The position numbers and the translations under genes are program-made. Below are positions 12,423-62,892 of a DNA stretch of 64,000 bases, one piece after another. Numbering within the stretch: the first letter of the stretch is position 1; each line of letters starts with the position of its first letter. This DNA is from an uncultured Gammaproteobacteria bacterium (GTDB lineage: Bacteria > Patescibacteriota > Microgenomatia > Daviesbacterales > UBA10151): NCBI GenBank assembly GCA_964394855.1, contig CAYMZD010000004.1, positions 8,316 through 72,315 on the forward strand, in the 5' to 3' direction. The notes under the pieces are model-generated. The model did not search any database. It was given only the letters and a program-made list of their open reading frames with translations, and was not told the DNA's origin.

Positions 12423-12493
12423 AGGCCCGTAGCTTAGTGGTAAAGCGGGTGTCTTATACACACTTGATGAGGGTTCGATTCCTTCCGGGCCTA
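12423..12493 (+). tRNA. tRNA with anticodon UAU (Ile, AUA-reading)
   Basis: A manual cloverleaf gives acceptor AGGCCCG/CGGGCCT, D-stem GCTT/AAGC, anticodon stem GGTGT/ACACT, loop CTTATAC, T-arm GAGGG-TTCGATT-CCTTC and A73. CCA is not encoded. Confidence 0.55.
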
Positions 12494-12578
12494 CCCTTCA
12501 ACAAGCTCAGGGTAAACTGAAAGGGGGTGATGAGTTCTGAATAAGCAAATAGGAAAAGTAGTACACTATTATGATAAA

Positions 12579-20017: not shown

Positions 20018-21859
20018 ATGGCCAATGGAAAAAAGAAATTAAATCACAAACGTTTGTGGTCTATTACCAAAGGGGTGGCTATTTATGTTTTAATAGCCCT
20101 GGCTTCTTTAATCTTCTTTTATTCATTTGCAGGTCCACCTCAACCCCAAAACCAAGTGCCAATCTCCCAAATAATTCAGGATATTAAAGATAAAAAGATA
20201 GACAAGATCATCCTGGAGGGGGATAAAATTCAGGCCAAATTAAAAGATGCTGATGAGAAGATAGTTTCCCGGAAAGAAGAAGGGGAATCAATTTATAAAA
20301 TTCTGGAAAGTTCTGGAGTTGATCCCAAGGAAGTGACCATTGAGGTCAAAGATATTTCCATGCAGCAAGCTTGGGTAAATATCTTAGGAGCTTTTTTACC
20401 AGTGATTTTAATGGTGGTACTTTTTTTCTTCATTTTCCGCCAAGCCAGAGAAGGAGCCCAGGGCATTTTTTCCTTTGCCCAGAGCCGTGCCAAGCTTTTT
20501 ACTAAAGATGCCCCTCAAATTAAATTTGGCGATGTGGCAGGAGCAGAGGAGGCCAAAAAAGAGCTTTCAGAAGTGGTAGATTTTCTAAAAAGTCCGCAAA
20601 AATATAAAGACATCGGGGCCAGAATTCCCAAGGGAGTACTTTTAGTTGGTCCTCCGGGTACAGGTAAAACCCTCTTGTCAAGAGCGGTGGCCGGCGAGGC
20701 CAATGTACCATTTTTCTCCATTGCCGGTTCAGAATTTATGGAAATGCTAGTGGGAGTGGGAGCAGCCAGAGTTCGCGATATGTTTTCCCAAGCCAAAAAA
20801 AGCGCTCCGGCCATTATTTTCATTGACGAGATTGAATCAATCGGCAGGATGCGTGGTTTTGGCATTTCCGGCGGGCATGATGAAAGAGAACAGACCTTAA
20901 ATCAAATCTTGGTGGAGATGGATGGTTTCGCTCCCAATGATCATGTGATTGTCGTCGGTGCCACTAATCGCCCTGATTTATTGGATCCGGCCCTAATTCG
21001 ACCAGGCAGATTTGATAGACGGGTGATTTTAAATATGCCTGATATAGAAGAGCGAAAGGCCATTATTGAATTGCACATGAAGGGTAAACCATTTACTAGG
21101 GAAGTTGATGTTGAAAGATTGGCCAGGCGAACTGTGGGTTTTTCCGGAGCGGATTTGGCCAATATGTTAAATGAGGCTGCCATTTTGGCTGCGCGCGAGG
21201 CTAAAAAAGCGATAGACCCCAGAGATCTGGAAGAGGCGGCCACCAAAGTTAAACTGGGGCCGCAGCGAAAAAGAATGCAAACGGAAAATGATAGGAAGCT
21301 TTCCGCCTATCATGAGGCTGGTCATGCCATAGTGGGACATCACTTACCTTTAGTTGATCCGGTCCATCGCATTTCCATAGTATCGCGCGGCATGACCGGG
21401 GGACACACCATGTTTCCCCCCACTGAAGATCGCTCTAATGAGACAAAATCGCGCCTCACACAGCAAATTACCACTGCCTTGGGAGGAAGAGCAGCAGAAG
21501 AGATGGTTTTTAGTGATATTTCAACCGGAGCGGCCAGTGATATTGAGATAGCCACCGGTATTGCCAGGGAAATGGTGGCGGAATATGGCATGTCCAGTTT
21601 AGGACCAATTAATATCAAACCTCGTTCTATGTTTGGTCTTTGGCCTACCATGGGGGAAGAAGGTGGCGGGGTTTCCCAGACCATGCAAACAAAAATTGAT
21701 ATGGAAGTTAAAAAAATTATTGACTCTTGTTACAAACAAGCTCAAGAGATTTTGCATAAAAATAAGGCCAAACTTGATAAAGTGGCCAAGGCCCTTTTGG
21801 GAAAAGAAACTTTAGATACGGATGAATTTGAAAAACTTATTGGGAAGAAGAAAACTTGA
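20018..21859 (+). CDS. ftsH: ATP-dependent zinc metalloprotease FtsH
   Basis: N-terminal TM region, Walker A GPPGTGKT, SRH region, zinc motif HEAGHA. TGGTATAAT box 7 nt upstream of the ATG. Confidence 0.95.
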   Translation: MANGKKKLNHKRLWSITKGVAIYVLIALASLIFFYSFAGPPQPQNQVPISQIIQDIKDKKIDKIILEGDKIQAKLKDADEKIVSRKEEGESIYKILESSGVDPKEVTIEVKDISMQQAWVNILGAFLPVILMVVLFFFIFRQAREGAQGIFSFAQSRAKLFTKDAPQIKFGDVAGAEEAKKELSEVVDFLKSPQKYKDIGARIPKGVLLVGPPGTGKTLLSRAVAGEANVPFFSIAGSEFMEMLVGVGAARVRDMFSQAKKSAPAIIFIDEIESIGRMRGFGISGGHDEREQTLNQILVEMDGFAPNDHVIVVGATNRPDLLDPALIRPGRFDRRVILNMPDIEERKAIIELHMKGKPFTREVDVERLARRTVGFSGADLANMLNEAAILAAREAKKAIDPRDLEEAATKVKLGPQRKRMQTENDRKLSAYHEAGHAIVGHHLPLVDPVHRISIVSRGMTGGHTMFPPTEDRSNETKSRLTQQITTALGGRAAEEMVFSDISTGAASDIEIATGIAREMVAEYGMSSLGPINIKPRSMFGLWPTMGEEGGGVSQTMQTKIDMEVKKIIDSCYKQAQEILHKNKAKLDKVAKALLGKETLDTDEFEKLIGKKKT

Positions 21860-26082: not shown

Positions 26083-27201
26083 ATGAAGGTGGCATTAGTT
26101 CACGACTATTTAAGGGAATATGGGGGAGCAGAGCGGGTATTGGAGGCTTTGCATGAGATTTGGCCTAAAGCTCCAGTTTATGTGGCTTACTACAACCCGG
26201 CCGCTTTAGGTTCACAAGGTCGGGCCTTGCGAGGCTGGGATATCAGAACTTCTTGGTTACAAAAAATTCCTTTTGCCAATAAATTAATTTCCCCTCTTCG
26301 AATTCTGGCCCCAATGATTTTTGAAAGTTTTGACCTGTCACAATATGATCTGGTAATTTCTTCCTGCAATGTTTATTTTTCCAAAGCCGTGATAGTCAAG
26401 CCCGAAGCCTTGCACATCAGTTATATTCATACCCCCCCGCGTTATCTTTATGGCTATACCACCTCTTTTAATTATAAAAAACACTGGTGGACCAGGATAG
26501 GAGGGGAGATAATTAATCATTTTTTAAGAATTTATGATTTTGAAACTTCCCAGCGGCCGGATATTTTGGTGGCCAATTCCAAAAATGTTCAAGCTAGAAT
26601 AAAAAAGTTTTATAGAAGGGATGCAGAAGTGATTTATCCGCCAGTGGAAATTAAGAAATTCGAAATTCCCGCCAAAGGCGAGGCTCGCCAGAGGCAAGGA
26701 TATTTTCTGACGGTTGGGAGGTTGGTTAGGGGAAAGGGAATAGATATCGTTATTGAAGCTTGTGGCAGATTAGGATTATCTTTGAAAGTAGTTGGCACAG
26801 GACCTGAAAAAGAGAATTTAGAATCAAGCATTAAGAATAAAGCTTTAAAAAATATAGAGTTTTTGGGACAAGTTAGTGATGAAGAATTGGCTAAACTTTA
26901 TGCCGGGGCCAAGGCTACTATTGTGGCCTCGGAAGATGAAGATTTTGGCATTGTACCAGTGGAGTCAATGGCGGCCGGAACTCCGGTGATTGCCCCTAAA
27001 TACGGAGGCTATCTGGAAACTGTCATTGATGGGAAAACAGGGATATTATATGAAGCAGGTGAACTGATAGAGGCTATTAAAAAGTTTGAAAAGATAGTTT
27101 TTAAACCAGCAGATTGCCAAAACCAAGCTGAAAAATTTTCTAAAGAAAGATTTAAAAAAGAAATCTTAGATTTGGTTAAGGAGAATGTAAAAGATGCCTG
27201 A
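26083..27201 (+). CDS. GT4-family glycosyltransferase
   Basis: Motif EDFGIVPVESMAAGTPVIA (GT-B, EX7E-like). Confidence 0.85.
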   Translation: MKVALVHDYLREYGGAERVLEALHEIWPKAPVYVAYYNPAALGSQGRALRGWDIRTSWLQKIPFANKLISPLRILAPMIFESFDLSQYDLVISSCNVYFSKAVIVKPEALHISYIHTPPRYLYGYTTSFNYKKHWWTRIGGEIINHFLRIYDFETSQRPDILVANSKNVQARIKKFYRRDAEVIYPPVEIKKFEIPAKGEARQRQGYFLTVGRLVRGKGIDIVIEACGRLGLSLKVVGTGPEKENLESSIKNKALKNIEFLGQVSDEELAKLYAGAKATIVASEDEDFGIVPVESMAAGTPVIAPKYGGYLETVIDGKTGILYEAGELIEAIKKFEKIVFKPADCQNQAEKFSKERFKKEILDLVKENVKDA

Positions 27202-28075
27202 ATTACCTGAAGTAGAGACAATTAAATTAGTTCTCCAAAGGAGAATAGTTGGGAAAACTATTAAAGATATTCAAGTTCTATCTTCGAAATCTTTCATAGG
27301 TCAACCACAAGATATAAAAGATAAAAAAATACTTAAAATTTGGAGAAGAGCTAAGTTATTGGGAATTGATTTGAGTTCAGATAAAACCCTTCTTTTTCAT
27401 TTAAAAATGACTGGACAGTTGATCCATGAGGATGGGAAAAGGCCCGCCTTGCCCGACGCAAGTCGAGGCAGGTTTATTGGTGGGCATCCCACAGAAGATA
27501 TGAAGGGTCCCATGCCCAATTCTCATACACGAGTGATTTTTACTTTTTCGAGTGGATCAAAGCTTTATTTTAATGACCAGCGCCGCTTTGGCTGGATAAA
27601 AGTAAGTGACAAGGGAAAAATGGTAAGTGATAAATCATTAATAAATTTGGGACCAGAACCCTTGGAGAAAAATTTTACTTGGGAAGTTCTAAAGATAAAT
27701 TTGTTAAAGCATAAATCCATGCCAATTAAAGCGGCCATTATGGATCAGTCCGTGATTTCCGGGGTAGGCAATATTTATGCATCAGAGGCCTGTTTTGCCG
27801 CCAAAATCGACCCTCGCAGAAAAGTAAGTAATTTATCTGATAAAAAGTTCCGAAGTCTATTTTGGGGCATCAGAAAGGCTTTAAAGAAGGGAATTAAGTA
27901 TGGGGGATCTACCCGGGCGCATTTTGTGGACCCAGAGGGTCACAAAGGTTATTTTCTAGACTATGCCTTTGTTTACGGCCGCGATAAACACTCCTGTAAA
28001 GTTTGCCAAAGCGAAATTAAAAAAATCTCTCTAGGGGGCCGGGGAACATATTATTGCCCCAAATGCCAAAAATAA
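27194..28075 (+). CDS. mutM: Formamidopyrimidine-DNA glycosylase
   Basis: N-terminal MPELPEVET; C-terminal zinc finger CKVCQSEIKKISLGGRGTYYCPKCQK. Confidence 0.9.
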   Translation: MPELPEVETIKLVLQRRIVGKTIKDIQVLSSKSFIGQPQDIKDKKILKIWRRAKLLGIDLSSDKTLLFHLKMTGQLIHEDGKRPALPDASRGRFIGGHPTEDMKGPMPNSHTRVIFTFSSGSKLYFNDQRRFGWIKVSDKGKMVSDKSLINLGPEPLEKNFTWEVLKINLLKHKSMPIKAAIMDQSVISGVGNIYASEACFAAKIDPRRKVSNLSDKKFRSLFWGIRKALKKGIKYGGSTRAHFVDPEGHKGYFLDYAFVYGRDKHSCKVCQSEIKKISLGGRGTYYCPKCQK

Positions 28076-28085
28076 TTGATATAAT
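28037..28085 (+). repeat. Direct repeat copy 1 (fpg 3' end, ending in TTGATATAAT)
   Basis: A 32-bp core is identical to 29198-29229, and the similarity extends to ~49 bp. Confidence 0.8.
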
Positions 28086-28093
28086 AAGCTTGT

Positions 28094-28552
28094 ATGGTTA
28101 GTGAAGAAGATTCGCAAACAATAGAGATAAAAGAAAGATCTAGGCGGCAAGATGCGGCAGGAGCGGCATTTAGAGGATGTATGGATCAGATTTCAACAAC
28201 AGAGAGGTTTACCCCAGAGGAGGCAAGGCGATTGGGTGGTTTATTTCTTGCTCGTTTACTTGAATTTGAGCTGTTTGTGCAAGATGTAATTCAATTCGAG
28301 AATACAATTGGTGGTCTTCCTAGGTGGCATAATCCCCATGAAAGGGGTAAATTAGAAAAAGCTTTGTTTGATGCTCAAAAAGGAGATTATAGAAAATTTA
28401 GAGAGGCCTTATCCTTATCCAGTCAAGGAGCATGGGTGCAAAAAGGTTTAAGAGAAAAGTTGTCAGAAATAGCTCGTCTGATTCCCGACCAAGGTGAACC
28501 TTTTAGACCGCCGCCTCCAGCTTGGCAAGATCCGGAATTCACGCAATTATAA
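28094..28552 (+). CDS. Hypothetical Arg-rich protein (cassette cargo)
   Basis: GC- and Arg-rich composition that differs from the neighbouring genes. Confidence 0.45.
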   Translation: MVSEEDSQTIEIKERSRRQDAAGAAFRGCMDQISTTERFTPEEARRLGGLFLARLLEFELFVQDVIQFENTIGGLPRWHNPHERGKLEKALFDAQKGDYRKFREALSLSSQGAWVQKGLREKLSEIARLIPDQGEPFRPPPPAWQDPEFTQL

Positions 28553-28617
28553 TAACATTACGCGGGACTTGACAAAGTCTAAGAAAAATAGTAGGATAAT
28601 CTTAGGAAAATCTAATT

Positions 28618-28893
28618 ATGATAATACCGACAGCTAAAAATACCAAAACCATTACAGATTTAAGGGAAAAAGCCCTGGAAATGCTAGAACAAACAAAAAA
28701 GGCGGGCCCCACCTTTATCTTGCATCGCAGTAAACCCACAGCCGTGATGTTGTCGATTGAGGAATATGCCAACATGATGGAGATGCTGGAAGATTATTTT
28801 GATGCTTTAAAGGCCGAAGAGCTAGAAGAAGATGGTGAGAAAGGCGGAATCGGTTTAGATACTTTAATAAAAAAATATAATCTTAGGGTCTAA
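28618..28893 (+). CDS. Phd/YefM-family antitoxin
   Basis: N-terminal sequence TITDLREKALEMLEQ...PTFILHRSKPTAVMLSIEEY. Confidence 0.75.
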   Translation: MIIPTAKNTKTITDLREKALEMLEQTKKAGPTFILHRSKPTAVMLSIEEYANMMEMLEDYFDALKAEELEEDGEKGGIGLDTLIKKYNLRV

Positions 28894-29153
28894 TGTACCA
28901 AATTACTATCTCATCAAAAGCAGAAAAGCATTTTGCCAGACTACCTAAAAACTTACAAGAAAAAATCGCCAAAAAATTAAAGCAACTTGAGGAAAACCCA
29001 CTTCAGCAAGGCTTGGATATTAAAAAGTTAGCAGGTACAGAAAAAAGTTATAGATTAAGAGCAGGGGAACTGCGGATACTTTACCAAATGAAGACCGGAT
29101 TAAAAACAATTTTAGTGGTAGACATTGATTTTAGAAGGACCTCCACCTATTAA
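28893..29153 (+). CDS. RelE/ParE-family toxin
   Basis: 86 aa; overlaps the antitoxin stop; C-terminal KSYRLRAGELRILYQM... Confidence 0.75.
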   Translation: MYQITISSKAEKHFARLPKNLQEKIAKKLKQLEENPLQQGLDIKKLAGTEKSYRLRAGELRILYQMKTGLKTILVVDIDFRRTSTY

Positions 29154-29180
29154 AGGTAAATTAAAAAGATTTCCCTGGTT

Positions 29181-29229
29181 GGCCGTGGAACTTACTTTTG
29201 CCCCAAATGCCAAAAATAATTGATATAAT
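29181..29229 (+). repeat. Direct repeat copy 2 (decayed duplicate of the fpg 3' end plus -10 box)
   Basis: ggccgtggaacttacttttgccccaaatgccaaaaataattgatataat matches 28037-28085 with mismatches only in the distal part. Confidence 0.8.
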
Positions 29230-29236
29230 TTAGAAA

Positions 29237-29884
29237 ATGGCTAAAAATTTAATATTATTGCCAGGTTGGACCAGAAGTGAAAGATCTTATCGTGGTTTAA
29301 TTAATTCTTGCCCCAAAGATTATAGATTAACCATTGCCTTACATGAAAAAGTTTGTCCAAAAGGACATATTGAAGATTTTTTAATAAATTTCCCAAAATT
29401 CTTAAAAGAAAAGGGATTGAATAAAATTATTTTAGCAGGCCATTCGCTGGGTGGGGCATTGGCCATAGAGTTTGTGCTTAAATATCCCAAAAAAGTTGAT
29501 CAATTAATTTTAATTGATTCAGCCGGGGTTTATGAAGGGGAAAATATTTTTGAACTGTCCAGAAACTTTTTAAAAAACATTTTTTTAACAGGTCGCGGCA
29601 AGCTTAAGCTATGGCTGGCTTTTAGAAACTCTGCCGGTTTAGTTAGAAAATTCCCCATGCATTTAAAACTGGGACAGTATGCTTTCAAAGTTGACCTGCA
29701 AGCTCATGGATCTAAAATTCAAGTCCCGACTGTTATATTGTGGGGAGAGAAAGATCATTTAACTCCTCTTTGGCAAGGAGAAAAACTACATCAGGCCATA
29801 CCCAATTCTAAGTTTATTATCTTAAAAGATATGTACCATGATTGGATTTTATCCAACCCGGAACTTTTCTGGCAAAATATCTAG
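29237..29884 (+). CDS. Alpha/beta hydrolase
   Basis: Nucleophile elbow GHSLGG. Confidence 0.75.
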   Translation: MAKNLILLPGWTRSERSYRGLINSCPKDYRLTIALHEKVCPKGHIEDFLINFPKFLKEKGLNKIILAGHSLGGALAIEFVLKYPKKVDQLILIDSAGVYEGENIFELSRNFLKNIFLTGRGKLKLWLAFRNSAGLVRKFPMHLKLGQYAFKVDLQAHGSKIQVPTVILWGEKDHLTPLWQGEKLHQAIPNSKFIILKDMYHDWILSNPELFWQNI

Positions 29885-29933
29885 TTGTCATCTGCTGCTA
29901 TAATGATTCTTGGGCTTTATAACTTTATAACCT

Positions 29934-31292
29934 ATGATTAAGAAACCAAGTTTTTCCTCGGTTATTCAAACAAAAGGATTTCAGGTTTTGTGGGCTAATC
30001 AAATTTTGGTCCAACTTGCCTATAATATTTTAAATTTTTCTTTAATTATTTGGGTATTTAAATTAACAGATTCCAATTTAGCCGTTTCATTATTGATTTT
30101 ATCTATTTACCTGCCGGCTTTAATTTTTGGCCTTTTTGCCGGGGTATTTGTGGATTTGGTTGATAAAAGAAAAATTATCACCCTGATTGATCTATTATTT
30201 GTGGTAGCTTTTTTAATCTTTCCTTTTATCAGGAAATCATATCCTTTAATTCTGGTAAACACTTTTTTTATCAACTCCCTGGCCCAATTTTTTATGCCTG
30301 CTGAAAGTTCATCCATCCCGCAGCTTGTTTCCCAAAAACAGCTTTTTTTAGCCAACTCTCTTTTTACGGTTACTTTATACGCCGCTTTTATGGTTGGTTT
30401 TACCGCTGCTGGGCCCATCTTAGATTCATTTAGCATCAGCCCTATTTTTTATCTGGGAGCTATACTTTTATTGATGGCTGCACTTATTTCACAAAATTTA
30501 CCAGTTTTAAAAGTGGTCAGGAAAGATAACTTTTCCGGAGCTGATATCTGGTCGTTGATAGCTTCAGAGACGAAACAAACAATAACTTTTATCCGGGGAA
30601 GATTAGCCATTGTGGTATCAATAGGTCTTTTGGCAGCTTTGCAGGGAGTGATTGGGGTTTTAGCAGTTTTAACCCCATCTTACATGGAGCGAGTGCTTGG
30701 GGTTCATGCCACTGATGCTTCTTTGTATGTGATGTTACCTTTGGGCTTGGGACTTATCAGTGGAGCACTTTTTATTGGCCACTTTTTCCACCGTCTACCC
30801 AGGCGCAGGCTGGTGATTCCGGGTATCATTTTAGCTGGATTTTTACTGGCTGGGGTGGGGATTGCTCCCAAAATAGCCGTTTTACTTGATGCCACCACCT
30901 TGCCGCAAAAAATTATTCATCTGCGCTATTTTCTGAATGCGCCCTCTTTAGCTTCCACTTTTGTGATTGGGGCATTTTTGCTAGGGGTGGCGGCTATTGC
31001 CATTATTATTCCTTCTCAAACTGTCTTGCAAGAGAATACCAAAGATGAAAACAGAGGCAAAATCTTTGCGGTTTTGTTTGTTTTAATGAATGCTTTTGCT
31101 ATTTTACCTGTTCTTTTAGCAGGAATTTTGGCAGATTTATTTGGAGAGACAAAGGTATTTTTTGCCATGGGGGTAGTTATTTTTATGACTGGTCTTTTGG
31201 CCATGAAACCGGCTATGTTTTTTGCCGAGAGTCATTTACCATATAAGGTGAGACAGTTTTTGGGTTTGGGACATTGGGAAAATGGGAAATAG
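29934..31292 (+). CDS. MFS transporter
   Basis: About 12 TM helices; 452 aa. Confidence 0.75.
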   Translation: MIKKPSFSSVIQTKGFQVLWANQILVQLAYNILNFSLIIWVFKLTDSNLAVSLLILSIYLPALIFGLFAGVFVDLVDKRKIITLIDLLFVVAFLIFPFIRKSYPLILVNTFFINSLAQFFMPAESSSIPQLVSQKQLFLANSLFTVTLYAAFMVGFTAAGPILDSFSISPIFYLGAILLLMAALISQNLPVLKVVRKDNFSGADIWSLIASETKQTITFIRGRLAIVVSIGLLAALQGVIGVLAVLTPSYMERVLGVHATDASLYVMLPLGLGLISGALFIGHFFHRLPRRRLVIPGIILAGFLLAGVGIAPKIAVLLDATTLPQKIIHLRYFLNAPSLASTFVIGAFLLGVAAIAIIIPSQTVLQENTKDENRGKIFAVLFVLMNAFAILPVLLAGILADLFGETKVFFAMGVVIFMTGLLAMKPAMFFAESHLPYKVRQFLGLGHWENGK

Positions 31293-43147: not shown

Positions 43148-43951
43148 TTACTGAATTTCTGACCACTTTTGCAATGCATCGGCAAAGACGTTCCTTAAAA
43201 TGACCAGATATTTGGGTTCGTAATGAATTTTTTCCGCCGGTTGGGTATTGTCTGTTAGCTGGCGGCGGAATTTAATTGGTTTGGTAGAATCAAGGCTAAT
43301 TAAACTGCCATTGATTAGAAGTTGAGGGGCATTAATATTAGCAGCCGGGCAGCCTCCGGCTTCATAGGCAGTGCAAATTGTACCCTGGGAAATCAAAACT
43401 GCATCAATTCGATCAGCATCCTTACTGATATTAATATCACCCCCAACCACGAAAACTACTCCCGAATTTGGACCACCATAGGTGATATTTTGGTTAATAG
43501 ACAAATTTTCTTTAACAAATACTACTCCGGATTCTCCAGTTCCACTCAAATTAGCGTCAATGTTGAGGTTATTTGGGATAAAATATAGACGGTTTAAGCC
43601 TCCGGTCATGGGAATATTCGACTGGGTACAGGGATTACAGGTTAAAGCGGTTTTATTAAGTGGGGGATCGGAGGGATTGGCCTGGTCATAATAAATGGAT
43701 TTTAAATCATCATAAGTGGGCAGTTTATAAGAAACAAAGGCGGCCTGATCTGTTTCTTTAATACACACAGCCTGGCCATTCACAGTATTGCCAAATTTGG
43801 TAATAGTATCCTTAGCACTAACCAGCCCGGTGGCTCTATCACCAATTTGACAACTACTAGGTTGGGCAAGTATTTGAGAAACGGTTAAAAGAATAAAGAC
43901 TAATCCCCCCATCACAAATAATACATAATGCTTAATGCTAGTTTTTTTCAT
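43148..43951 (-). CDS. Secreted hypothetical protein (N-rich, beta-helix-like)
   Basis: Signal peptide; overlaps the upstream giant protein gene. Confidence 0.4.
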   Translation of the reverse strand: MKKTSIKHYVLFVMGGLVFILLTVSQILAQPSSCQIGDRATGLVSAKDTITKFGNTVNGQAVCIKETDQAAFVSYKLPTYDDLKSIYYDQANPSDPPLNKTALTCNPCTQSNIPMTGGLNRLYFIPNNLNIDANLSGTGESGVVFVKENLSINQNITYGGPNSGVVFVVGGDINISKDADRIDAVLISQGTICTAYEAGGCPAANINAPQLLINGSLISLDSTKPIKFRRQLTDNTQPAEKIHYEPKYLVILRNVFADALQKWSEIQ

Positions 43952-46281
43952 GGTCCTCCCGGAGTATTTATTCTGGTATTAGAATGAACATCACCACCAA
44001 TAGTTTGAATCCATGATTGGACAGGTAGGGTATAACTCCAGCGCAAAGAGGCCCTGGCATCACCCCCGTTTTCATAATAATCAATCTCCACTAAATGGAC
44101 TCCTGCTGTGGCAAAGCTGCGACTGAAAGATCTCTCAAAATAGCCCGTGTCTCTCCAATCATCTAACACAGTTACTCCATCAATTCTCACTCTCACTCCA
44201 TCATCTGCCCCGGCATAAAAGGTATAAGTACCTGCTTTAAAGGTGAAGTTTCCTCTCCATCTGGCAGAAAAGGTATCAGCTCCCACAAAGGAATTAGGCT
44301 GACCTGTTCCCCAATCTTGATTTAAGGCATAAATTGTATCAGGAACAGGGGAGGGTAAAGATACACCATCAGGTGCATTGCCATCAGGGGTATTAAAGTT
44401 CACCCCGTCCCATAAACAGCCTGTCAGCTGATTGGTACCAGGACTGGTGTTGGTACAAGGGGGAGGAGGAATTAAACCAAACCAGCGGTGTTCAGAAACG
44501 CCCGCTGTTAAATTAACAGTGATAGCAGCAGGTTTTATCCAGCCAGCTGGGGCAATAGGATCAACAGTATAACTGCCGGGAGGAATAGCTCCAGTATCAT
44601 AGTAAGGGTCAGGATTACAAAGATTGGGTAGTTTAGTGCCTGACCAAGGCCCGGCAAAGTTAACCCAAGCATTGTCGCTGGTATATCCTCCGCAGGCAGC
44701 AGCTGAATTTCTGATTAATTGTTCTCCTCCATCCCATACTCCATTGCCGTTATCATCCTTCCACAACCTACCCAAAATGTTACCTGGACAAAAAGGCGCG
44801 ATAAAACTGGGACCTACTGTATGCACAGAACCATTCCACAGCCTCCATTGGTAGGTAGTATTGGGATTTAAAGTTAGGCCAGGGTTAAATCCCGCAGGTG
44901 CAGCAGTGGAGGTTTGATTACTAACATTTTTATTGGAGTAGCTGGCAAAACCATTAGTGGAGATGTCAGCCCACAAGGTGGAGTTGGTATTGGTCCAGCT
45001 CAAGGTCACATTAAACGGACCGCTGGCACAGGCGGGAACTCCTGATACCTGTAAGTTAGAAGGAGTGATGTTTTGGGTGGTAAAGTTTTGGGTGGGCGTA
45101 CAAGAGTATCTTGATCGGCCACTTGGTTGAACAGTAAAAGCTAGATTATGTGTACCACTGGTACCGCTTGGGACACAGTTATAGATAAAAGTGGGCCAGG
45201 GATTGGTAATACCTCCCCAGCAATAGTCTGCAGTTGCGCCATCACGATATAGCGCTACATTTGGCCAACCGTTGGGATCAGAGATACCTGTCACACGAGC
45301 TTGAATGGTGGAACTGGGTGGGGGATTGGAATTGGATAAGTTCCAGGAAACACTGCAAGAGCCTGGAGGAGGGGGAGGAGCACTACAGGCCCCGCCACAG
45401 CTGGGATCAGTGGTGGTACCGGCAGCATCATCTCTAATACAAGAACCACTGCTACATCTGTATCTGGCCAGAGGAGCACTACAGGCCCCGCCACAGCTGG
45501 GATCAGTGGTGGTACCGGCAGCATCATCATGAATACAAAGAGAAACGTCACATCGATACCTGTGGGTATGGGAGTAACAGCTAGAAGATGGATCTGAAAT
45601 GGTACTGCAGCTGGTGGAGCATTGAGGATACTGATTAACTGTTGACCAGCCACTCCAGCCGCTCCATCCACCACAATCCGCATTACAGGTTCTGGTTCTT
45701 TGCTGTTGGGTAACTGTTTCAGAACAATAATTTTCTATGCCGGGACAACTCCCACCATTGATAGAAGAATTACAAGAAGTTAAATATTGTGTTTCAGTTT
45801 GAGTTTCTCCACGGGTACAAATACCACAAGCCGGTACTGTTGTGCAGTCATGACTAACGGTATTGACCTCACTTCGTCTAACACACTCACAACTTGAATT
45901 CCAGTAATAGAAATATTGGAAATTACAAACATTATTACCTTTAGGGTTGGGTGTCCATTGCTGGTAAACATTGTTGCAACACCAGTTGCCGCTAAAATTT
46001 GATTCCCGGCATTCAGTAAATGGTGTACATGAAGGAGGTGGTGGAGGTGGATCACAGGCGCTGTCGCGGATGTTACATGAATCCTCCCAACAATAACCAC
46101 TACCATCATCCCATTCATAAACCATTTTACTGTAATAGTCAGCGCAACATTCGGTATAGCTGGGAACACATGATTGAGCATCAACTGACTTAACACTGAA
46201 AAAGAAAAAAACAGTTAACCCCAAAAAGATAAAAATAGCAATTAAAGCTTTAGAAAGGTAGGGCATATACTCATCGTACAA
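43948..46281 (-). CDS. Large secreted Cys-rich surface protein with C-terminal PA14 domain
   Basis: PA14 motif FSARWRGNFTF...GADDGVRVRIDG; many Cys; internal duplicated block ...DDAAGTTTDPSCGGACSAP. Confidence 0.6.
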   Translation of the reverse strand: MYDEYMPYLSKALIAIFIFLGLTVFFFFSVKSVDAQSCVPSYTECCADYYSKMVYEWDDGSGYCWEDSCNIRDSACDPPPPPPSCTPFTECRESNFSGNWCCNNVYQQWTPNPKGNNVCNFQYFYYWNSSCECVRRSEVNTVSHDCTTVPACGICTRGETQTETQYLTSCNSSINGGSCPGIENYCSETVTQQQRTRTCNADCGGWSGWSGWSTVNQYPQCSTSCSTISDPSSSCYSHTHRYRCDVSLCIHDDAAGTTTDPSCGGACSAPLARYRCSSGSCIRDDAAGTTTDPSCGGACSAPPPPPGSCSVSWNLSNSNPPPSSTIQARVTGISDPNGWPNVALYRDGATADYCWGGITNPWPTFIYNCVPSGTSGTHNLAFTVQPSGRSRYSCTPTQNFTTQNITPSNLQVSGVPACASGPFNVTLSWTNTNSTLWADISTNGFASYSNKNVSNQTSTAAPAGFNPGLTLNPNTTYQWRLWNGSVHTVGPSFIAPFCPGNILGRLWKDDNGNGVWDGGEQLIRNSAAACGGYTSDNAWVNFAGPWSGTKLPNLCNPDPYYDTGAIPPGSYTVDPIAPAGWIKPAAITVNLTAGVSEHRWFGLIPPPPCTNTSPGTNQLTGCLWDGVNFNTPDGNAPDGVSLPSPVPDTIYALNQDWGTGQPNSFVGADTFSARWRGNFTFKAGTYTFYAGADDGVRVRIDGVTVLDDWRDTGYFERSFSRSFATAGVHLVEIDYYENGGDARASLRWSYTLPVQSWIQTIGGDVHSNTRINTPGGP
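45378..45569. repeat. In-frame tandem duplication (2 x 96 bp) inside the PA14 surface protein gene
   Basis: gagcactacaggccccgccacagctgggatcagtggtggtaccggcagcatcatc occurs at ~45378 and again at ~45474. Confidence 0.8.
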
Positions 46282-47209: not shown

Positions 47210-47767
47210 TTACTCAACAATATTAAAAGAACTACCAACAAGCTCATTTTTTCTATGGGGAAACACAAAAAAGTCACCATGTAATTTAGTGCTTAAGGGG
47301 ATTTTATCAACAGTAACCTCTGTAAACCGTTTGCCATCTTTATCTGGTATGGCTTCTGGCTTATAAAATTTTGTGCCGTAAATTTCTTTCGAGCTGCCTT
47401 GTACGAAAATAACTATCTTATTTCCTTTATCATCCGAGATAGTGATAGACCCTTCATCCTTGGCCACTAGAGTTCCTACAACTGATCCTCTCCATTCATA
47501 AACCAGGGGGTTTTTAAGGATATCAAAAGCTATGGGGGACTCACTTTCATCAAGAGTTTTTCCTGATAGGCTGGCTGATGGGGTGGAGGTGGGAGTAGCT
47601 GGCTGGAAGGGGTTAGCCAATAAGTTTAGCTTAATACCAAAGTAGTTTAATAAAAAAAGTTCCACTAAAGTTAAAATTACCACCATTACTAAAAGATAAA
47701 ATATTTTTTTACTATAAAAAGGGGAAGGGGACATTAAAATTTGAGGCTTGGGGATATTACCATTCAT
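47210..47767 (-). CDS. Membrane-anchored hypothetical protein
   Basis: Its N-terminus and promoter lie inside direct repeat A; TTGACA-N17-TGATAAT box 6 nt before the ATG. Confidence 0.5.
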   Translation of the reverse strand: MNGNIPKPQILMSPSPFYSKKIFYLLVMVVILTLVELFLLNYFGIKLNLLANPFQPATPTSTPSASLSGKTLDESESPIAFDILKNPLVYEWRGSVVGTLVAKDEGSITISDDKGNKIVIFVQGSSKEIYGTKFYKPEAIPDKDGKRFTEVTVDKIPLSTKLHGDFFVFPHRKNELVGSSFNIVE

Positions 47768-47809
47768 AATTTAATTATCAAATTTTTACGGTTTATTTGT
47801 CAAGTCAAG
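47695..47809. repeat. Direct repeat A (115 bp) bounding the AsnB-like/PqqD-like cassette
   Basis: Near-identical to 49963-50084 (3 mismatches and one 9-bp indel). Confidence 0.85.
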
Positions 47810-47869
47810 TTTGACTATTAAAGGATAAAGTGCTATAAAATATTCTTATCATAAGAGGAGGTGAGGTAT

Positions 47870-48019
47870 TTTGAACACAGCAATTAAAGAAATTACTACT
47901 AATGAAGTAATACGAACTGAACCGGACCAGCTTCCTAAGGCAGAGATAATAAAAAGAAAAAGAGGAGCTAGCATGAGAAAGTATAGCTATTATCCAGATG
48001 GGGCAATAACACTTTACTA
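47870..48019 (+). CDS. Candidate 49-aa precursor-like peptide (MNTAIKEITTNEVIRTEPDQLPKAEIIKRKRGASMRKYSYYPDGAITLY)
   Basis: TTG start 6 nt after the strong SD AAGAGGAGGTGAGG. A nested ATG (MRKYSYYPDGAITLY) also has the SD AAGAGGAG. Located immediately upstream of the PqqD-like gene. Coordinates may be off by 1. Confidence 0.3.
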
Positions 48020-48058
48020 GGTTTAAAGTCTAAAACTCTGTGATTTTATCGAAAGTTT

Positions 48059-48346
48059 ATGAACCAAAAATATTGGCTTAATCAGTATTGTGTCTTTTTT
48101 CATCCCAAGTTAGATCAACAAAATAATTTTAATACTATTGTTAGAAATCCCGGTGGCGATTTTATTAAAGTAAATAAAAGCGGTTATTTTATCTTAAAAG
48201 CCATTAATGATAATCCTGGAATAAGTTTAGAAGGTGTCGCTAAGCAGATAAGAGCTACTTTAGATACTTCACAAATGTCCCTTAAAAATATTGAGCAGTT
48301 TGTAAGTTCAATGATGATTGGCGGTGTGATTGAAATCAATGAATAA
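48059..48346 (+). CDS. PqqD-like RiPP recognition element protein
   Basis: Size 95 aa; GDFIKVNKSGYFILKAINDNPGISLEGVAKQI is typical of PqqD/RRE; overlaps the next gene. Confidence 0.6.
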   Translation: MNQKYWLNQYCVFFHPKLDQQNNFNTIVRNPGGDFIKVNKSGYFILKAINDNPGISLEGVAKQIRATLDTSQMSLKNIEQFVSSMMIGGVIEINE

Positions 48347-49928
48347 ACATTTATTAATCCAAATAGACAAAAATAGCTGGAAATTAGATATAAATTTGCC
48401 CGATAGAAAGATACCGAGGAGTTTTAGGTTAGACCGAAATGGTTATATTTGTTTGGGATATTTTATTAGTTGGGAAGAGGATCTAACAGATCAGCAGATT
48501 TTTCAGTATTGTAAAGACAGAGACTTTGAAACGTTAGCCAATTTAACCGCCGATTTTTTAATAATATTTATCGATCAAAGTAATAAAAAAGTAACTGTAC
48601 TTAACAGCCAAACAGGAACCTTTCCATGTTATTTTGCTTTCATAGAGGACAATTTAATTATCTCAACCTCGTTTTACGAGATTAAAAAAAGGTTAAAATA
48701 TCTAACTTTAAATTTAAATCAAGCCTTTGATTATTTTATATTTGAATTTTTCAATTTTCCACAAGATGAAACGATATTAGAGGAGATAAACCAGGTTCCG
48801 CCAGCGGCGCTATTAGAAGTTAAACCGACTTTCGAATATAGAATTAGTTCTTTACTAAAGTACAGAGAATTTTATGGAGAAGGGGTTACACCTCTGGAAT
48901 CAACTGAAGATTTTACTAATCAAGTTGCTACTTTAATAGAAATAATCACTCGGGAACGCTTGACAAGACTTAAACAATTTTCTAAGGCTGGTGAATTAAG
49001 CTCTGGCTATGATAGTGGATTAGTAGCCTCCGCGATTGCTAATATAGATCCCCAAAGTGCTCAATTTTATACTTGGAATTCAGAGTTGGATCAACTTGAT
49101 AGCGATCCCGCTGTTGTAAAAAAGTTCGCTTTAAAACATGAATTAAAAGTTAATTTTTGGGAGAAAGATGCCTACTTTCCTTTTGCGGCAGAAGAAGACT
49201 TGAAGCTATCGGAAGATAATTTTTATCCAGCGACATTTGCTCAAAATTTAATTTTAGAATTCTACAAGTATCTTTCAGCGGAGGACAAAGAGGTTGTTTT
49301 TAACGGAACTGGAGGAGATGAAATTTATATGGTACATGAAATGGATGATTTATATCCATATTTTGTTCATCTTGATTATTTTGATACTGTTAGAGCTCTA
49401 GATTGGGATATAGATAGGATATTAACTTCAAAAGGTATAGATATTTTGATGGATAGAGATCGTTTTTCGAAAAGAAATCTCTATCCTGTGATTTTATCTA
49501 CGTCATCATTGGAAAAAAATTATTTCCCAATTTATTGGGAATATAATCTTTGGCCAGTATCTCCTTTAACAGATCCTAGATTAATTAAATTAGCTCGTAG
49601 AATGCCTAAAAAAGATCCAGAGCAATTGCGGAAAGAGCATATCTGGAAACACAGAACAGATATTTTCCTGCCCGAGCAACTAAAGCCCAAGCATAGATTT
49701 GGAACTTTAAATTTTGTTAAACAATATGTTAAAAAGAGAAAAGATTTTATTATTGAGGTACTTAGAAATTCAGTCTTGGCTAAAAAAGGTTTAATTAAGG
49801 CAGATGAAATTATAAAAAATCTACAAGAGGACAAATTTGATTTATATTCTGACAAAAATAATTTGTTTTTCCATAATGTAATTAGGCTTGAATATTTTAT
49901 CCAAAAAAATTTAGTTAAAGTTTTGTGA
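48330..49928 (+). CDS. Asparagine-synthetase-B-like amidotransferase without the N-terminal Cys nucleophile (lasso-cyclase-like)
   Basis: PP-loop SSGYDSGLVASAI (compare SGGLDSS); N-terminus MKSMNK lacks Cys2; TTG start; 532 aa. Confidence 0.7.
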   Translation: MKSMNKHLLIQIDKNSWKLDINLPDRKIPRSFRLDRNGYICLGYFISWEEDLTDQQIFQYCKDRDFETLANLTADFLIIFIDQSNKKVTVLNSQTGTFPCYFAFIEDNLIISTSFYEIKKRLKYLTLNLNQAFDYFIFEFFNFPQDETILEEINQVPPAALLEVKPTFEYRISSLLKYREFYGEGVTPLESTEDFTNQVATLIEIITRERLTRLKQFSKAGELSSGYDSGLVASAIANIDPQSAQFYTWNSELDQLDSDPAVVKKFALKHELKVNFWEKDAYFPFAAEEDLKLSEDNFYPATFAQNLILEFYKYLSAEDKEVVFNGTGGDEIYMVHEMDDLYPYFVHLDYFDTVRALDWDIDRILTSKGIDILMDRDRFSKRNLYPVILSTSSLEKNYFPIYWEYNLWPVSPLTDPRLIKLARRMPKKDPEQLRKEHIWKHRTDIFLPEQLKPKHRFGTLNFVKQYVKKRKDFIIEVLRNSVLAKKGLIKADEIIKNLQEDKFDLYSDKNNLFFHNVIRLEYFIQKNLVKVL

Positions 49929-49962
49929 TGTTGGTATGTGATTATTTTGCTAAAATAATCAG

Positions 49963-50084
49963 ATAAAATATTTTTTTACTATAAAAATATAAAAAGGGGA
50001 AGGGGACATTAAAATTTGAGGCTTGGGGATATTACCATCCATAATTTAATTATCAAATTTTTACGCTTTATTTGTCAAGTCAAG
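49963..50084. repeat. Direct repeat B, with a truncated 27-codon copy of the 47767 gene N-terminus on the minus strand
   Basis: Minus strand reads MDGNIPKPQILMSPSPFYIFIVKKYFI-stop. Confidence 0.85.
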
Positions 50085-62817: not shown

Positions 62818-62892
62818 GGGCATTTAGTTCAGCGGTAGAACGCTTCTCTGATAAAGAAGAGGTGGATGGTTCAACTCCATCAGTGCCCACCA
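62818..62892 (+). tRNA. tRNA-Ile(GAU)
   Basis: Acceptor GGGCATT/AGTGCCC, loop CTGATAA, T-arm GATGG-TTCAACT-CCATC, A73, CCA encoded. Confidence 0.85.

Follow-up and report, generated by a model that had tools for sequence, protein, structure and literature searches.

In the 64-kb stretch of DNA analysed here (the window; contig CAYMZD010000004.1 of assembly GCA_964394855.1), fpg, the gene for formamidopyrimidine-DNA glycosylase, is followed by a gene for a hypothetical protein (hyp), by a predicted Phd/YefM-RelE/ParE toxin-antitoxin (TA) pair and by a second copy of its own 3' end, which precedes the gene for an alpha/beta hydrolase. Judged by its codon-position pattern and its divergence, this second copy (copy 2) is the tail of another fpg allele, shaped by selection, and the arrangement probably arose through homology-dependent recombination anchored on the gene end, probably following DNA uptake.

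The repeat search covered the 64-kb window, and positions are window positions. For comparison, 80 fpg loci were fetched from species-representative genomes and the window proteins were mapped onto them; about 58 of these loci are Daviesbacteria-type, and individual loci are referred to by labels (L001 and so on). The window Fpg is 100% identical to an NCBI protein of Ca. Daviesbacteria (GCA_016198205.1, contig JACQIZ010000003.1), the next-closest Fpg in the protein search is 73% identical, and along fpg no relative stays nearest throughout, all of them lying at ~70%. The features of the locus, all on the + strand, are as follows.

27194..28075, +: fpg (formamidopyrimidine-DNA glycosylase), intact, 293 aa; Pfam Fapy_DNA_glyco, H2TH and zf-FPG_IleRS, all above cutoff
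28008..28085, +: repeat copy 1, the resident fpg tail (codons ~272-293 and stop) with 10 nt of 3' flank; repeat search
28054..28085, +: identity block, copy 1, 32 nt, ending in TGATATAAT (28077-28085); exact match to 29198-29229
28094..28552, +: hyp, 152 aa, helical, cargo unit 1; no Pfam, NCBIfam or PADLOC match
28569..29153, +: Phd/YefM-RelE/ParE unit, cargo unit 2; Pfam, NCBIfam phd_fam, promoter scan
28618-28893, +: phd; PF02604 PhdYeFM, 42.7 bits (cutoff 29.8), E 4.8e-11; TIGR01552 phd_fam, 28 bits (cutoff 20.8)
28893-29153, +: relE; PF05016 ParE_toxin, 32.1 bits (cutoff 23), E 1.8e-7
29152..29197, +: orphan fpg tail, left part, assigned to the other allele (IKKISLVGRGTYF); codon-position bias, divergence, junction common to L091-L094
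29198..29229, +: orphan fpg tail, right part, identity block copy 2 (CPKCQK*, TTGATATAAT); exact match, conserved -10 position
29237..29884, +: alpha/beta hydrolase, one-time direct downstream neighbour of fpg; Pfam, order in L025, L029, L037, L039 and L044

The two copies of the fpg tail

The fpg gene itself retains the hallmarks of Fpg/MutM, with PF01149, PF06831 and PF06827 above cutoff, an N-terminal MPELPEVE and, in its tail, a CKVC...CPKC zinc finger. Comparison of the window with itself recovered the repeat of this tail, in which 28008-28085 matches 29152-29229 over 78 nt, longer than the 49 nt initially described, with 85% identity and a spacing of 1144 (repeat search). Its 32-nt core, TTGCCCCAAATGCCAAAAATAATTGATATAAT, shows no difference between 28054-28085 and 29198-29229, as had been stated, and occurs just twice in 64 kb with up to 3 mismatches allowed, 0 occurrences being expected from shuffles. 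The initial annotation held that copy 2 had decayed and no longer encoded the zinc finger, but translated in frame with fpg it gives IKKISLVGRGTYFCPKCQK*, free of interrupting stops, frameshifts and indels, and the gene caller of the source assembly annotated it as a 19-aa open reading frame (ORF) with a weak zf-FPG match.

Over 20 codons, copy 2 differs from fpg at 10 bases, which fall 0/2/8 at codon positions 1/2/3 (P=0.0034 for at least 8 of 10 changes at one codon position). Seven codons differ synonymously and the only amino acid changes in copy 2 are G>V and Y>F, both variant residues being present in real Fpg proteins of the clade, where F is the majority residue; the probability of at most two amino acid changes and no stop after 10 random substitutions is P=3.4e-4. 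Over its left 39 nt, copy 2 shares 74% identity with the resident tail and, on average, 69% (maximum 82%) with the tails of 52 other lineages. Because the codon-position bias is accompanied by divergence at the level seen between lineages, the two copies appear to have diverged while each formed part of a working fpg. At 28053/28054 this between-lineage divergence switches to 32 perfect bases, which points to a recombination breakpoint, and the 32-nt block is probably a crossover or conversion tract. The left part of the orphan meets the RelE stop at a 4-nt AAAG overlap, and the flank of the core, TAATTGATATAAT, was seen elsewhere only in L083/L013.

A transposition-like insertion generating a target-site duplication of ~49 bp, followed by neutral decay of copy 2, was the origin first proposed for this arrangement, and it would account for direct repeats around the cargo and for a perfect 32-nt core. 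It is nevertheless extremely improbable, since the differences are partitioned by codon position, seven of the affected codons are synonymous, neither stop nor indel is present and the divergence of the left part equals that between lineages. Furthermore, the repeat search detected no inverted repeats at the insert ends and the Pfam list no transposase or integrase within ±6 kb of the insert, the latter in accordance with the initial annotation. We know of no transposase whose product is a target duplication of 78-97 nt. Codon-position statistics offer a quick test of this kind for any repeat that resembles a target-site duplication.

Recurrent cassettes behind fpg in Daviesbacteria

The neighbours of the point at which cassettes enter, the 3' end of fpg, are a glycosyltransferase (GT) gene, fpg, a major facilitator superfamily (MFS) gene and recF. 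The commonest gene order is fpg-MFS-recF, and some lineages (L025, L029, L037, L039 and L044) present fpg-hydrolase-MFS-recF, which is the empty-site order that had been suggested as a check in relatives; the gene downstream of the insert is, as predicted, an alpha/beta hydrolase by Pfam. Approximately 35 of the ~58 loci are unoccupied, with the next conserved gene at most 100 nt from fpg, and ~20 are occupied by 0.4-5 kb of cargo, mostly TA modules. Seen across these genomes, the fpg 3' end is a recurrent cassette hotspot in Daviesbacteria. Orphan fpg tails number three in L017, two in L012, one in L035 and one in each of L091-L094, with a remnant in L083, and the larger arrays are ordered as follows.

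L017: fpg, 348-aa protein without assigned family, tail, HicB/HicA, tail, HTH_3/Gp49 (reverse strand), tail, RHH/PIN, MFS
L012: fpg, 192-aa protein without assigned family, tail, Fic+HTH, tail, RHH/PIN, MFS
L035: fpg, 184-aa protein without assigned family, short tail, RHH/PIN, MFS

Every orphan can be read in frame as a distinct zinc-finger tail (CGRCQK, CPHCQK, CERCQA, CPACQK), and the sequence after the stop is unlike in every tail copy. No recombinase was found in the gaps of L012, L017, L035, L004, L008, L018, L026, L027, L051 and L001. The first-slot proteins of L012, L017 and L035 were considered as relatives of hyp and rejected, as they are not related to it.

In L038, L040 and L052, RHH/PIN stands directly after fpg, and the L035 orphan and the spacer that leads from it to VapB (tgtcccacttgccaaaagtaa...atgatgtataatagtgatgtATG) correspond to the junction at which tail and VapB meet in the unoccupied L052. 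The nearest relatives of the window TA pair (Phd 90%, RelE 83%) reside in L091-L094, in the order fpg, ~300 nt, Phd-RelE, orphan tail, MFS. The junction between RelE stop and orphan, TATTAAAGGTAAATTAAAAA, is the same in L091-L094 and in the window, and the L091 orphan ends in ...TGCCAAAAAGGTGTAGACTAA (CQKGVD*) followed by the MFS spacer, like unoccupied fpg-to-MFS junctions; the same remnant (CQKGVD* with the MFS spacer) lies between hyp and MFS in L083. Because the orphans of L035, L091 and L083 match unoccupied junctions, the direction of insertion can be read from them. The orphan tails are old fpg tails kept on the former downstream gene, and the incoming DNA would have supplied the cargo together with the tail that now completes fpg.

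Both tail copies in the window end in TGATATAAT, an extended -10 box situated 8 nt before the ATG at 28094 and 7 nt before the ATG at 29237, as the initial annotation had recognized. Of the 33 unoccupied junctions, 27 have a TAnA[AC]T box that coincides with the fpg stop or follows it closely, versus 7% of random windows, and 17 of these boxes lie 6-12 nt from the next ATG. In unoccupied junctions of L004-L059 (for example L007 5849-5864 and L020 5897-5912), TATAAT or TAGAAT sits at or overlaps the fpg stop, without a Shine-Dalgarno sequence, which suggests leaderless or near-leaderless expression of the MFS gene from inside the fpg 3' end. The extended -10 box is thus a conserved feature that probably drives expression of the gene behind fpg with a very short leader or none, and orphan tails would persist because the promoter of the old neighbour rides on them. 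In the window, the right part of the orphan tail (29198..29229) is the probable promoter of the hydrolase gene. The duplication had been thought to create this promoter; with the box conserved in unoccupied junctions and kept on the orphan tail, the copy before the hydrolase was not made by the insertion and is the old promoter of the downstream gene.

The cargo of the window, by comparison with its relatives, comprises at least two independent units, hyp and Phd-RelE. The one close homologue of hyp (63%) is likewise the first gene behind fpg, to which it is connected through an identical 18-nt junction, TAATTGATATAATAAGYTTRTATGGTT, and no TA pair accompanies it (L083/L013), and the contexts of 43 remote homologues are unrelated. 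The Phd-RelE unit is present in six copies at two chromosomal sites, whose alignment begins precisely at the -35 box (28569) and ends at the stop (29153); its toxin has relatives with up to 84% identity, above any housekeeping protein at the locus, one of which is placed elsewhere on a contig with an empty fpg site (L087/L059). The description of the locus as a clean cargo insertion holds insofar as extra genes bounded by tail copies lie between fpg and its old neighbour, but the cargo is not a single unit. The RelE-stop/orphan junction common to L091 and the window would be either older than the window lineage or a part of what moved with the TA unit. The 300-nt spacer between fpg and the TA pair of L091 was examined as a decayed hyp and rejected.

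The TA pair looks like an ordinary predicted Phd/YefM-RelE/ParE module, both families named at first sight being found above their cutoffs, with the antitoxin gene first and the two genes overlapping at TAATG. Its promoter, TTGACA-17-TAGGAT (28569-28597), has an inverted repeat, CTAAGA/TCTTAG (28579-84 / 28600-05), around the -10 box that is kept in the six copies, and the unit may well be autoregulated. Against NCBIfam RelE_StbE the toxin scores 18 bits, below the cutoff of 27.9, and its assignment extends to the RelE/ParE superfamily only. No function could be attached to hyp, with no match in Pfam, NCBIfam or PADLOC and an AlphaFold pLDDT of 54.8. The initial portrayal of hyp as Arg-rich is borne out mildly (9.9% Arg), but its supposed GC-richness is not, since its GC of 0.420 lies within one standard deviation of the window ORF mean (0.389, sd 0.044) and its GC at third codon positions (0.281) is below that of its neighbours; base composition gave no sign of a foreign origin for the cargo. 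An Rfam scan of 27000-30500 returned no match.

At a broader scale, too, the locus is a mosaic, in which fpg itself has been exchanged. Between the window and L014, GT is 80-90% and fpg 55-75% identical at the DNA level, and at the protein level GT and the hydrolase fragment are ~80% and Fpg 68% identical. At L014 4300-4460 the fpg stop is fused to hydrolase codon ~172, the first two-thirds of the hydrolase gene being deleted, which suggests that the fpg allele was replaced and that its right-hand end was joined illegitimately.

Probable recombination at gene ends

In each of the newest pairs of resident and orphan tails there is a block of perfect identity, which measures 43 nt in L017 (offset -88), 32 nt in the window (offset -19) and 22 nt in L091 (offset -30). 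Among 1378 random resident-tail pairs used as a null, the median longest run is 9 nt, with P(>=22)=0.013 and P(>=32)=0.0007, and the minimal length for efficient recombination in Escherichia coli is ~20-30 nt. The L012 block is 15 nt long, with a truncated orphan, and L035 has no block. Over four loci the offsets (-88, -39, -30, -19) define no fixed core. At synonymous sites, identity is 0.467 in the fpg tail versus 0.477 in the whole gene; because the tail equals the gene in this respect, no DNA-level constraint marks an attachment (att) site, and att-site conservation of the fpg tail was rejected by this test. DNA folding of six tail copies and strands gave z values of -1.07 to +1.22 and no attC-like hairpin, and no conserved non-coding motif was found after the fpg stop. 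As read from the sequences, these features fit homology-dependent recombination and not a dedicated enzyme and site.

The gene-end pattern extends beyond fpg. In L087 and L090, the cassettes that precede a class-Ib tRNA-synthetase gene have copies of its first ~30 nt between them (ATGAAAAGAATTTTAACCC...), in a mirror image of the fpg case that involves Phd-RelE and BrnT/CopG cassettes (L087 3600-4900, L090 3638-4876, L089 1640-1700); in L089 the TA pair stands directly before the true start of the synthetase gene. Furthermore, the window contains a second duplication, of 97 nt with 98% identity (47713-47809 and 49988-50084), which consists of the promoter (TTGACA-17-TGATAAT, 6 nt before the ATG) and first 18 codons of the minus-strand gene 47210-47767, the orphan reading MDGNIPKPQILMSPSPFY and the resident MNGN... 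The 2178-bp insert between its copies (47810-49987, GC 0.31) holds a 532-aa ORF (48330-49928) with no Pfam match and an SGYDSG motif. A separate observation in L087, a Daviesbacteria contig, concerns an RVT_1 reverse transcriptase beside a bAvd-family gene (1-1100, ~3 kb upstream of the TA cassettes), a pairing that is diagnostic of diversity-generating retroelements.

A site-specific recombinase encoded elsewhere, either integron-like or cis-mobilisable, might alternatively use the fpg tail as its att site, with integrase-less cassettes carrying an att copy. Small, mostly TA cassettes in arrays, each between like direct repeats and with the newest beside fpg, are in line with such a system, as are three orphans with different cargo that start at one A-run (ATTAAAAAAATC), which could mean a preferred site, and three that start near codon 264. 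This explanation is unlikely, given that the exchange points are scattered over the four offsets, that post-stop motif, synonymous constraint and hairpin are all lacking, that at its other site the TA unit has tRNA-synthetase heads as its boundaries, and that no recombinase is present within ±6 kb or in the examined gaps.

In the preferred model of homology-dependent recombination, the donor would be a relative already possessing an fpg-hyp-TA-orphan array, its incoming DNA would carry its own fpg tail beside the cargo, and exchange with the resident fpg tail would occur inside the 32-nt perfect block. The left product, up to 28085, would be native fpg as far as the block and then donor sequence; the insert product, 28086-29197, would comprise hyp, Phd-RelE and the left arm of the donor orphan; and the right product, from 29198 onward, would consist of the block, the native flank and the hydrolase gene. 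The result would be hyp and Phd-RelE behind an intact fpg, with the allelic tail 29152-29229 before the hydrolase gene and bearing its -10 box. This outcome could follow from one crossover if the incoming fragment was circularised, or from an equivalent pair of crossovers if it was linear and carried two tail copies, and the model predicts GGAACATATTATTGCCCCAAATGCCAAAAATAATTGATATAATTTAGAAAATGGC as the empty-site junction (resident left arm, core and hydrolase flank) and GGAACTTACTTTTGCCCCAAATGCCAAAAATAATTGATATAATAAGCTTGTATGG as the circle or tandem junction (orphan left arm, core and hyp flank). A block shared by both partners would be a precondition of the exchange and not a coincidence, and the string circulates in the clade, since L083 has it.

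No element-encoded recombinase would be needed for this process, for which host RecA-type recombination, probably after natural uptake, would be enough. What the sequences show is that the orphan belongs to another allele, that such arrangements recur, which way the cargo came in, and that the identity blocks vary in position, with no att motif or hairpin and no recombinase within ±6 kb or in the examined gaps; RecA dependence, DNA uptake, the donor and the type of crossover are inferred. Patescibacteria in general are reported to have kept recombination genes and comEC/pilus DNA uptake (PMC12455944), and single-crossover integration of a recircularised fragment is known to duplicate part of the homologous anchor (109-950 bp; PMC3240628). 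In homology-facilitated illegitimate recombination (HFIR), the other end is joined at a microhomology of 3-10 bp, often with deletion (PMC3240628), and some of the junctions observed here, few in number, look illegitimate in a similar way (RelE stop to tail, through the common AAAG; L035; and the stop-to-codon-~172 join of L014).

Duplication of the tail in situ at the time of insertion, followed either by fpg allele replacement up to the block or by gene conversion of the 32-nt block, would also leave two dissimilar copies with a shared core. Replacement of the fpg allele did happen at the locus, in the window lineage or in L014, and the sharp breakpoint at 28053/28054 could be the end of a replacement tract. 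Such a history is improbable, as it invokes two events where one suffices and requires, in arrays with two or three orphans that are all different alleles, a replacement after each insertion. Moreover, L091 shares the RelE/orphan junction and yet its orphan differs at the right end, where it matches the native fpg-to-MFS junction, and conversion could carry TTGATATAAT past the limit of homology only if it was already present in both copies.

Several observations weigh against homology-dependent recombination from an array-bearing donor. Older orphan pairs share runs of only 9 and 6 nt, with no identity block, and the common A-run start of three orphans belongs here as well. The model requires the native flank of the recipient to have the TAATTGATATAAT of the donor, a string found only in L083/L013. 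No donor, empty-site allele or circle junction close to the window strain was found, a metagenome scan with the hydrolase protein for a close empty-site relative giving a best match of 37% identity, and the sample amounts to four to five independent arrays.

In the Candidate Phyla Radiation, whose genomes are tiny and poor in recognisable mobile elements and for which genetics in culture is lacking, gene gain is largely inferred. Orphan gene ends would provide readable scars of the direction and order of cassette gain, with other lineages as donors, and the identity blocks suggest the places of exchange. These scars point to host recombination on very short homologies, and not to dedicated recombinases, as a route by which TA and accessory cassettes settle beside housekeeping genes. 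In genome annotation, the short "zf-FPG" mini-ORFs that follow fpg would be recombination scars and not genes.

Some further features were recorded in passing. The FtsH gene of the closest fpg relative (L001 1-2250) contains an intein with a LAGLIDADG endonuclease (Pfam Intein_splicing, LAGLIDADG_3), and the window FtsH (20018-21859, 613 aa) is intein-free by length. A tandem 96-nt repeat (45375-45562; two copies, 85% identity) lies in the minus-strand ORF 43948-46281, and ARAGORN identified a tRNA-Ile with anticodon TAT, uncommon in bacteria, at 12423-12495, in addition to tRNA-Ile(GAT) at 62818-62892.

Comparison with known systems

The literature search found no paper on fpg as an integration site. 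The insertion does not qualify as a transposon, having neither transposase nor inverted repeats and showing non-random differences between its repeats, nor as an integrase-borne island, with no integrase within ±6 kb or in the examined gaps and no fixed core, nor as an integron. Chromosomal integron arrays, built with IntI, attI and attC, are often rich in TA modules. The fpg arrays resemble them in their small cassettes, many of them TA, split by a repeated element and with the newest at a fixed entry that supplies a promoter, but at fpg there is no IntI and no attC palindrome (z near 0), the repeat is a fragment of a housekeeping gene, and most cassettes are equipped with promoters of their own. 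It is conceivable, though rather doubtful, that Daviesbacteria and perhaps other Candidate Phyla Radiation lineages possess an integrase-free analogue of the integron, in which gene ends would serve as portable recombination sites and leaderless promoters, and cassettes would be excised, taken up and re-inserted by host recombination into ordered arrays exchanged across lineages.

Islands and cis-mobilisable elements are known to occupy gene 3' ends, such as that of fda in Streptococcus thermophilus and those of tRNA genes. As at fpg, insertion takes place in the 3' end of a gene that is restored by the incoming DNA, the displaced end becomes the far direct repeat, accretion occurs in tandem and some units lack an integrase; unlike in those islands, no integrase lies near fpg, there is no fixed core, the units measure 0.6-1.1 kb, and at a second site the TA unit is flanked by the end of another gene. 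In the "minimal mobile elements" of Neisseria, different cassettes without mobility genes lie between the same core genes, and exchange has been proposed to proceed by recombination in the flanks after transformation. The variety of cassettes in one core-gene interval and the lack of mobility genes are common to both, whereas in Neisseria the interval is replaced by double crossover with no duplicated gene ends, and here orphan tails or heads remain and cassettes stack. The TA pair itself has nothing unusual among type II Phd/YefM-RelE/ParE modules, with which it shares an antitoxin-first two-gene operon, a 4-nt overlap, both families and a sigma-70-type promoter with an inverted repeat at the -10 box.

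The HFIR and single-crossover integration described in Streptococcus pneumoniae, Acinetobacter baylyi and E. coli conjugation (PMC3240628) offer a further parallel, in that ~1 kb of foreign DNA is placed beside a homologous anchor, no mobile-element enzyme takes part and a portion of the anchor is duplicated. Joins at microhomology (here AAAG between RelE and orphan) and deletion (here the 5' two-thirds of the L014 hydrolase gene) may likewise be common to both. On the other hand, the anchor at fpg would be only ~20-80 nt of diverged tail with blocks of 22-43 nt, and the events there stack into arrays in which orphan anchors are apparently reused as homology. The insertion behind fpg works like the homology-anchored integration of transformable bacteria and like hotspots flanked by core genes, and it is set apart from both by its leftover gene ends and its stacked arrays.

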